Shown: positions 28,989 through 29,428, numbered from the stretch's first letter. The stretch is DNA of 64,000 nucleotides from Pyrinomonadaceae bacterium (GCA_035249365.1 DATFGP010000022.1:192013-256012); one strand, 5' to 3'. A program made the numbers and translations. The notes: generated by a model from the letters alone, not told the origin.

Positions 28989-29428
28989 CAGTGACGAGTG
29001 ACAAGTGACAAGTGACGAGATAAAAACAAGCGGTTATAAAGATTTGCTTGTGTGGCAAAAGGGCATTGCTTTAGTAAAGCAGGTTTATCGAATCACTGAC
29101 GTGTTTCCCTCGGAGGAAAAGTTCGGCCTTGTTTCACAAATGCGCAGAGCCGCAGTTTCAATACCTTCGAACATAGCAGAGGGACAGGCGCGCCATACCA
29201 AAGGAGAATTCGTACAATTCATTTCTCACGCGGAAGGCTCAGTTGCAGAGTTAGACACACAACTAATAATCGCTGTTCAACTGACTTATTGCACGCAAGC
29301 GCAAGCCGACAGCGCATTTGAACTTATAACGGAGTTGCGGAGAATGCTTAATGCCCTACGCAGAAAGCTCACAAGCACTTAGTTCCTATGGCTTTCACTT
29401 GTCACCTGTCACTTGTCACTCGTCATCG
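28989..29428 (+). repeat. A-family palindrome with a protein-coding gene in its loop
   Basis: The left arm cagtgacgagtgacaagtgacaagtgacgag (28989-29019) pairs with the right arm tcacttgtcacctgtcacttgtcactcgtcatcg (29395-29428), with about 2 mismatches over about 26 nt. The 375-nt interior is CDS 29005-29382. Confidence 0.88.
29005..29382 (+). CDS. Four-helix-bundle protein (23S rRNA intervening-sequence protein / Avd-like family)
   Basis: 125 aa with family hallmarks 'YKDLLVWQKG', 'FPSEEKFGLVSQMRRAAVSIPSNIAEGQAR' and 'FISHAEGSVAELDTQL'. The only in-frame start is a GTG inside the repeat arm. Confidence 0.85.
   Translation: MTSDEIKTSGYKDLLVWQKGIALVKQVYRITDVFPSEEKFGLVSQMRRAAVSIPSNIAEGQARHTKGEFVQFISHAEGSVAELDTQLIIAVQLTYCTQAQADSAFELITELRRMLNALRRKLTST

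Follow-up and report, generated by a model that had tools for sequence, protein, structure and literature searches.

Why does a protein-coding gene lie within the stem and loop of a repeat hairpin? The question is raised by positions 28,989 to 29,428 of a 64,000-nt stretch of DNA from a Pyrinomonadaceae bacterium (GCA_035249365.1, DATFGP010000022.1:192013-256012), referred to here as the window; its best protein matches also point to Pyrinomonadaceae (Acidobacteriota). At this locus, two arms of tandem heptamers, one the complement of the other, surround a single open reading frame (ORF) for a four-helix-bundle protein of the family found in intervening sequences (IVSs) of 23S rRNA. A sequence-only reading of the window had pointed out this arrangement, had noted short hairpins with the same arms and no gene, and had proposed that an orphan protein family is thereby tied to a specific kind of repeat. 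That proposal holds, and it is far more general than first seen: in a large subfamily of these proteins, the genes are as a rule enclosed by inverted arms of about four to five tandem heptamers. Arms and gene have been gained, lost and duplicated as one unit. We lean towards the view that such a cassette is a form, outside rRNA, of the ORF-bearing 23S IVS element.

A four-helix-bundle gene between heptamer arms

The left arm (28990-29019) reads AGTGACG AGTGACA AGTGACA AGTGACG AG, and the right arm (29395-29425) reads CTTGTCAC CTGTCAC TTGTCAC TCGTCAT, the complement of the left arm, with a degenerate outermost unit (GTCATCG). A repeat search placed the arms at 28992-29024 and 29393-29425, each 33 nt long, 88% complementary and separated by 368 nt. 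The stem runs about 5 bp further inward (GATAAA/TTTCA), as in the gene-less copies. A tandem-repeat finder (TRF) gave a period of 7 with 3.9-4.6 copies for arrays in the window. When the cassette RNA was folded, a terminal stem of about 34 bp appeared in both the minimum-free-energy and the centroid structures (z −4.15). The earlier claim that four-unit GTGACRA arms and their complement enclose one ORF is thus confirmed, and the same arms are found on six gene-less hairpins in the window.

The ORF (29005-29382) is the only long one in the hairpin interior. Its GTG start codon belongs to the third of the left arm's heptamers, and no alternative start retains the whole domain, because the Pfam match starts at residue 12; this GTG was rightly named as the only start. 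The ORF shares 15 nt with the left arm, and is therefore not wholly inside the loop, so that the description of the gene as exactly the loop interior was correct as to the single ORF and not as to its left boundary. Of the 12 positions scored between stop codon and right arm (29383-29394), relatives share 2-5, as against 23-29 of about 30 in the arms. The left arm begins 5 nt past the stop codon (28983-28985) of an upstream, co-directional 1648-aa LTD/Big_2 gene, and the right arm runs into the stop codon (29416-29418) of a zapA-like gene that converges on the cassette from the minus strand (29416-29940). A search of 28700-29700 gave no sigma-70-type promoter. No rRNA was found in the 64-kb window; the cassette sits between the LTD/Big_2 and zapA-like genes rather than in a 23S helix.

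The assignment of the product to the four-helix-bundle family is secure, with matches far above the cut-offs to PF05635 (134.6 bits, cut-off 33.8, E 1.9e-39) and TIGR02436 (126.8 bits, cut-off 24); NF008911 is also matched (142.2 bits, cut-off 137). An AlphaFold2 model (predicted local distance difference test score 91.8) is a four-helix bundle matching the fold of solved members, with the seven N-terminal, arm-encoded residues predicted to be disordered. The homologous structures 2GSC (E 5e-27) and 2RLD each contain five chains, and 2GSC has been described as a toroidal homopentamer; by analogy with these two, the ORF product would form a toroidal homopentamer as well. The RxxxSxxxNxxE motif described for the family (PMC3936711) is present as R48, S52, N56 and E59. 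Across 73 homologues, Q45, S52, N56, E59, S79 and E82 are invariant, R48 is conserved in 97% and T85 in 99%. Pfam and NCBIfam searches found no nuclease, recombinase, transposase or HUH domain, giving only the four-helix-bundle family and sub-threshold models of Avd, the accessory protein of diversity-generating retroelements; PADLOC gave no match.

The Avd matches were pursued and rejected as an identification: NF033474 scored 34.6 against a cut-off of 80, and PF22296 33.3 against a cut-off of 40. No reverse transcriptase (RVT) family was found among the neighbours here, in L081-L084 or in L165-L173, and no template repeat or variable repeat was found near the ORF. Because it falls below both curated cut-offs and has no adjoining reverse transcriptase, the product is a relative of Avd and not Avd.

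Enclosure is the rule in a large subfamily

Scanning one genome per species, we collected 80 loci encoding relatives 44-75% identical to the ORF product, from more than ten phyla (including Acidobacteriota, Verrucomicrobiota, Planctomycetota, Bacillota, Bacteroidota, Pseudomonadota, Chloroflexota, Desulfobacterota and the candidate phyla radiation); 75 of them had enough flanking sequence to be testable. An inverted-repeat score of at least 12 was reached by 62 of the 75 loci (83%), compared with 5 of 559 controls obtained by shifting the placement along each locus (0.9%). A search for flanking arms at homologues was the test that the sequence-only reading had set in advance, and its outcome is not one of chance; the units differ between loci. 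Clear inverted pairs were lacking at 15 loci (three cut by a contig end), most of which still have degenerate heptamers. Arm self-identity is 0.76 at a lag of 7 and about 0.26 at lags of 4-6 and 8-10, and examples of units are AGTGGTT, CCAGTAG, AGCCTTA and GGACGGT, the last repeated 16 times. Because the loci were chosen by similarity to the ORF product, the rule is established for this large subfamily rather than for PF05635 as a whole. No 23S rRNA motifs were found within 3 kb of any of the 80 loci.

The unit sequence varies by lineage, and the 5' arm keeps an AG core, matched by CT in the 3' arm. Rotating the units into alignment gives AG(T/G)NNYY for the 5' arm, with A at position 1 in 59 of 66 loci and G at position 2 in 64 of 66; the information content is 4.5 bits, compared with 3.3-3.65 for shuffled units. 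In 45 loci the 5' arm contains AG and no CT, and in 3 the reverse holds (p 1e-10). Because a hairpin reads alike on both strands, this polarity is a property of the hairpin itself. Stem mismatches are fewest at the G of the unit (0.8%) and most frequent at unit positions 5-6 (about 20%). We also considered that the arms might serve to close all reading frames: stop triplets occur in 42 of 66 units where 29.9 would be expected, but every frame is closed by only 31 of the 66 5' arms, and the property is not a defining one.

The cassettes are compact. Arms have a median length of 29.5 nt, or about four units, and interiors measure 356-580 nt; the median distance is 29.5 nt from the arm to the first conserved codon and 11.5 nt from the stop codon to the 3' arm. 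This short arm-to-codon spacing places the start codon in or beside the stem, and in the window copy and in Xanthomonadales it lies inside the arm. In 53 of 57 loci the gene upstream runs in the direction of the cassette gene (p 6e-12), its stop codon lying a median of about 4 nt before the arm; the gene downstream does so in 42 of 56. Since the arms are symmetric, this orientation bias concerns the gene alone, and it indicates dependence on host transcription.

Arm sequence and protein are associated among close relatives. A heptamer (within one mismatch) is common to 49% of protein pairs at least 60% identical, cross-phylum pairs included, compared with 3-4% of other pairs; globally, protein identity and heptamer distance are weakly related (rho −0.06; 75 of 2000 permutations). 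AGTGACR arms accompany proteins 54-75% identical to that of the window also in Verrucomicrobiota, Acidobacteriota and Bacteroidota. In-frame stops fall within the conserved domain in 7 of the 80 copies. Among 72,556 plasmids, 33 carry the family, mostly in Nostoc and Calothrix, and the family was not detected in phage records at E <= 1e-5. On one such plasmid (L174, Nostoc PCC 7120 plasmid gamma, 340-810), a copy beside an ISL3 transposase has CT-type arrays on both sides and no inverted pair, and looks like a rearranged exception. Second four-helix-bundle copies lie within a few kb at L025 (4881-5222), L038 (4019-4363) and L060 (540-875), the last directly after a gene-less AGACCTG hairpin.

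Arm conservation in the Xanthomonadales cassette

Orthologues of XCC0516, the crystallised pentamer, lie between accB and accC in Xanthomonas, Stenotrophomonas, Lysobacter and Dyella, within arms of GGGAATC x4 and NATTCCC x4. A deviant second unit creates the start codon (ATG or GTG). In four of five loci (L165, L168, L170, L172 and L173, at about 1420-1940) the 3' arm ends at the accC ATG, Lysobacter having a 9-nt spacer. The arms are conserved beyond synonymous saturation: from Xanthomonas to Dyella, synonymous sites are saturated (synonymous divergence dS > 1.1) and the GGGAATC arms are nearly unchanged. The stem shows two compensatory changes (G-C to A-T), and every seventh position is unpaired. 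The accB-accC operon is essential, and there is no obvious Shine-Dalgarno sequence in the 3' arm.

These arms belong to a class of repeat that has been described without the gene. The GGGAATC repeats of Xanthomonas, the very ones that flank the cassette there, include 70-75 convergent (inverted) pairs (Rehm et al., PMC4692102), TAACTGA repeats are described in Beggiatoaceae (PMC4679880), and regulatory roles were proposed for both (PMC4692102, PMC4679880). The text of these two papers contains neither '23S' nor 'helix bundle' and does not mention the four-helix-bundle gene. Like the arms of the cassettes, published heptanucleotide repeats (the cyanobacterial short tandemly repeated repetitive (STRR) sequences, GGGAATC/GGGGAYT of Xanthomonas and Nostoc, and TAACTGA) are tandem 7-nt intergenic units that often abut start or stop codons; they have been treated as simple repeats, G-quadruplex formers or regulatory motifs. 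A literature search that left out most subscription journals found no paper tying the protein family to heptamer arms generally.

Arms and gene are inherited as one unit

Two same-site orthologues (L081 and L082) have the order LTD gene, four-helix-bundle gene, zapA, thiG. The protein is under strong purifying selection, with a ratio of nonsynonymous to synonymous divergence (dN/dS) of 0.04-0.06 at dS 0.6-0.9. Between the window and L081, 29 of 30 positions are identical in the left arm, 26 of 31 in the right arm and 5 of 12 in the spacer after the stop codon. The ORF has a GC content of 46% (44% at third codon positions), compared with 58-63% in the flanking genes, despite vertical inheritance at the site.

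A paralogue (L083) lies elsewhere, between a kinase gene and one for an extracytoplasmic-function (ECF) sigma factor. Its ORF is 67% identical to that of the window at the DNA level and its left arm identical at 29 of 30 positions, and the homology ends at the outer arm edges. In L086, whose thiG is the closest relative (94%), the site is empty: the two stop codons stand 29 nt apart, and neither arms nor gene lie between them. In a survey of the orthologous site in 80 metagenome thiG loci, synteny was lost in all but L086. Gain, loss and duplication have thus involved arms and gene together. Inspection by eye of the arm edges of the seven family A copies described below and of L083, and of the filled versus empty site, showed no direct repeat of the kind expected of a target-site duplication.

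The empty spacer of L086 (at 2330-2375; it separates the stops of zapA and the LTD gene) contains TTGTCC twice, 14 nt apart, a pair that could be the relic of a B-type unit (Table 1). Degraded copies were seen at two other loci: in L135 (1463-1610) an A-type arm directly after thiG is followed by a truncated four-helix-bundle remnant (positions 77-113 of the hidden Markov model (HMM)), and in L155 (3675-4180) an AAAGGCA-type hairpin is followed by a degraded gene copy. Metagenome contigs tend to break at heptamer arms (L082 at position 1, and several short contigs), and assemblies probably under-represent these elements as a result.

Gene-less hairpins

Allowing at most one mismatch, the window contains 39 occurrences of the two-unit pattern GTGACRAGTGACRA, where 0.10 would be expected. 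These occurrences make up seven hairpins of what we call family A, the gene-bearing one and six gene-less ones with loops of about 19-55 nt, all of which share the four-unit arms and an inner stem stretch of about 8 nt. Hairpins of at least four other heptamer families are also present (Table 1).

Table 1. Coordinates of the gene-bearing cassette and of other heptamer repeats in the window
Feature	Position	Strand	Details
5' arm and inner stem extension (GATAAA)	28990-29024	+	four tandem heptamers, AGTGACR x4
ORF, 125 aa, PF05635/TIGR02436 four-helix-bundle (23S rRNA intervening-sequence protein)	29005-29382	+	profile matches
Spacer, stop codon to 3' arm	29383-29392	+	short, non-conserved
3' arm	29393-29425	+	TYGTCAC x4, complement of 5' arm, outermost unit degenerate
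Gene-less family A hairpin	9095-9178	.	same four-unit arms, loop about 23 nt; RNA fold z −12.3
Gene-less family A hairpin	11025-11113	.	pattern and repeat search
Gene-less family A hairpin	13719-13805	.	pattern and repeat search
Gene-less family A hairpin	21663-21748	.	between SAM-II riboswitch match 21525-21600 and ORF starting at 21757
Gene-less family A hairpin	37304-37424	.	occupies whole spacer between two co-directional ORFs
Gene-less family A hairpin	54459-54547	.	pattern and repeat search, RNA fold
Family B (GTCAGTT/GTCCGTT) hairpins	3802-3922, 36661-36760, 48058-48178		no gene
Family C (GGGAAAG) hairpins	6665-6741, 18934-19046		no gene
Family D (GAGGGAT) hairpin	45791-45884		no gene
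Family E (CGCAGAG) hairpin	23696-23800		no gene
Lone heptamer arrays	2961-2982, 21301-21331		

Nearly all heptamer hairpins of the window have AG in the 5' arm. Most of the gene-less ones fill the entire spacer between co-directional genes, and some occupy 5' leaders or the gaps between convergent genes. Their RNA folds are very stable (z −5.5 to −12.3), and no Rfam family matches them. They are AT-rich, at 38-50% GC, except for family E (56%), and the right arms of family B (CAACTGA) are similar to the TAACTGA repeats of Beggiatoaceae. Gene-less heptamer hairpins also stand beside the cassettes in 10 of the 80 other loci. At least 13 heptamer hairpins occur in the 64-kb window, compared with 4 in 347 kb of related thiG contigs, which suggests that they have expanded in this lineage.

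The sequence-only reading had likened short and long copies to MITEs (miniature transposable elements with inverted repeats) and their autonomous partners. The likeness extends to the termini, which the short copies share with the rarer gene-carrying copy; it stops at the absence of a transposase domain, of a target-site duplication and of evidence of recent transposition, and at the long tenure of the gene copy at one locus. The gene-less hairpins may have arisen from gene-bearing ones by deletion, or they may instead be targets or substrates. A search with the family HMM against six-frame translations of loops of intermediate size (100-290 nt; L006, L013, L025 and L054) found no decayed gene remnants at E < 0.01, and the deletion-derivative model is therefore without direct support.

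Relation to rRNA intervening sequences and a proposed mechanism

ORF-bearing IVSs of 23S rRNA (Leptospira, Coxiella, Brucella) have the same S23p/PF05635 protein and surround the ORF with an inverted-repeat stem of about 28-30 bp. The Coxiella stem, of 28 bp, contains tandem GACAGAT heptamers whose number differs between strains, the start codon lies just past the repeats, RNase III cuts have been mapped in vitro, and horizontal acquisition was inferred (PMC4990558). Written in AG phase, GACAGAT is AGATGAC, like the AG-core units of the cassettes, and the link to stem-flanked, RNase III-cut IVSs that had been drawn from the window is well founded. The cassette, like an IVS, has a stem enclosing the whole insert in the manner of terminal inverted repeats; unlike an IVS, it lies between protein-coding genes and not in rRNA. 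Its protein is under strong purifying selection, whereas the Coxiella ORF is decaying. The general heptamer and AG rule, the orientation rule and the gene-less relatives are undescribed for IVS elements.

We consider it somewhat probable that the locus is the non-rRNA form of the ORF-bearing 23S IVS element, that is, a hairpin-bounded cassette carried in host transcripts, whose stem is cut and whose arms are recognised by the encoded pentamer. We infer a mechanism of the following kind. The cassette would be transcribed by read-through from the upstream host gene, and the arms would pair in the host RNA to form a stem of about 30 bp occluding the start codon. RNase III may then cut this stem, by analogy with the rRNA copies, for which alone RNase III excision has been shown (PMC4990558); the cut would part the cassette from the host message and limit translation of the ORF. 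The pentamer may recognise the repeated heptamer stem, by parallel with Avd, the sole characterised relative, which binds RNA stem-loops with flipped-out bases (bioRxiv 10.1101/2023.10.23.563531). Binding to its own stem would amount to autoregulation, and binding to gene-less copies in other operons to action in trans. The conservation of arm sequence beyond pairing, and its travelling with the protein across phyla, argue for a sequence-specific reader, for which the encoded protein is the obvious candidate.

Several observations weigh against this proposal. The enclosure rule is limited to the subfamily 44-75% identical to the ORF product. Read in the sense RNA, stem mismatches comprise 63 G.U and 66 A.C; G.U is not in excess, so that pairing in the sense transcript in particular bears no mark of selection. 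The Coxiella ORF seems not to be translated in vivo and the excised RNA is rapidly degraded, and this apparently silent ORF and the lack of a G.U excess go against a purely RNA-level role. The conservation of arm sequence, for its part, points to a sequence reader or a DNA-level process over plain RNA structure. Avd is strongly basic, whereas the cassette family is only mildly so (median isoelectric point 8.2, 21% acidic), a charge that lends weak support to general nucleic-acid binding, and the conserved polar residues look more like a catalytic or ligand pocket.

Some of the same observations favour a serious alternative, in our judgement possible and yet doubtful, which is compatible with RNA-level processing: a DNA-level mobile or self-maintaining system, in which the arms, as single-stranded DNA hairpins or cruciforms, would be the substrate for copying or recombination and the protein would spread or maintain them in trans. 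Gene-less hairpins would then be non-autonomous copies, or landing pads for the gene via recombination through the arms of about 30 bp. Its models are the repetitive extragenic palindromic (REP) sequences, their hairpin-forming doublets (REPINs) and the REP-associated tyrosine transposases (RAYTs), and also foldback elements. A RAYT is an HUH (Y1) tyrosine transposase, encoded by a single gene that is flanked by inverted copies of the dispersed REP repeat and inherited vertically at a fixed locus under purifying selection; eukaryotic foldback elements have inverted termini of short tandem repeats, and most copies have no coding centre. Like a RAYT gene, the cassette gene is flanked by inverted copies of a repeat dispersed as intergenic hairpins, although its product has no HUH domain and REP arms are not tandem heptamers. 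Presence and absence at an orthologous site (L086), a paralogue whose homology ends at the arm edges (L083), the sharing of AGTGACR arms and 54-75% identical proteins across three phyla, the lineage-specific expansion of hairpins, the copies with in-frame stops, the lack of a G.U bias in arms kept beyond the needs of pairing, and invariant polar residues suggestive of an active site all fit this alternative. Against it stand the absence of any known nuclease, recombinase or transposase domain and of a target-site duplication, the stability of the accB-accC cassette across four genera, the rarity of the family on plasmids and the failure to detect it in phage records at the threshold used, and the lack of gene remnants in intermediate-size loops; the 53:4 orientation bias is more directly explained by dependence on host transcription, as the IVS-like proposal has it.

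It is improbable, in our view, that the host uses the heptamer hairpins for regulation (for instance as terminators, to stabilise mRNA, as RNase III sites or as G-quadruplex formers) and that the gene is an unrelated cargo which tolerates or prefers their loops. Such a role would suit the great excess of gene-less hairpins over the gene-bearing one and their filling of whole intercistronic spacers, the regulatory functions already proposed for GGGAATC and TAACTGA, and the enrichment of stop triplets in the units. Incidental cargo, however, would not give a family-wide rule with 83% of members enclosed, nor would it account for arm sequence and protein travelling together across phyla or for the strong selection on the protein; moreover, the only full-gene-sized loops in the window and related contigs carry this family, as judged without annotation of the loops for other genes. 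Still less credit is due to a chance juxtaposition with an abundant intergenic repeat, or to a retroelement accessory gene. The repeat is abundant enough in the window for some genes to be flanked by chance, and weak matches to Avd models do exist; the contrast between loci and shifted controls refutes chance, orthologues and paralogues retain the arms, and the Avd scores are below cut-off with no adjoining reverse transcriptase. We conclude that an IVS-like cassette is the best account of the locus.

A broader formulation can be offered tentatively: the pentamer might be a dedicated reader or maintenance factor of heptamer hairpins, with one lineage-specific AG-core unit per subunit, in a second, widespread repeat-plus-protein system resembling REPIN-RAYT and having no known nuclease fold. 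This would explain both the excess of STRR, GGGAATC and TAACTGA repeats and the ORF-bearing rRNA IVSs, the latter as stray insertions.

Implications and further observations

The enclosure rule joins three subjects: the unexplained excess of heptanucleotide repeats, which are reported as over-represented in bacterial genomes and have no accepted explanation; the four-helix-bundle family, which has crystal structures and thousands of relatives in public collections; and rRNA intervening sequences. The general rule was not found in the searchable literature. Existing reagents make the link testable, namely the XCC0516 pentamer, whose gene lies inside GGGAATC repeats within the essential accB-accC operon. 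Arrays of 7-nt units beside the gene may be mistaken for CRISPR arrays, and may inflate the 'CRISPR association' reported for the family (PMC3936711, PMC10910872).

Two further observations concern neighbouring sequences. About 60-200 nt past thiG, L085 and L093 carry a non-heptamer, GC-rich palindromic repeat (GAGCGGGGGCAAGCCCCC...GGGGGCTTGCCCCCGCTC) that recurs in related soil contigs. Upstream of one gene-less family A hairpin in the window, which is acidobacterial, the Rfam model SAM_alpha (the S-adenosylmethionine riboswitch SAM-II) matches 21525-21600 on the plus strand with 41.2 bits, against a gathering score of 36.

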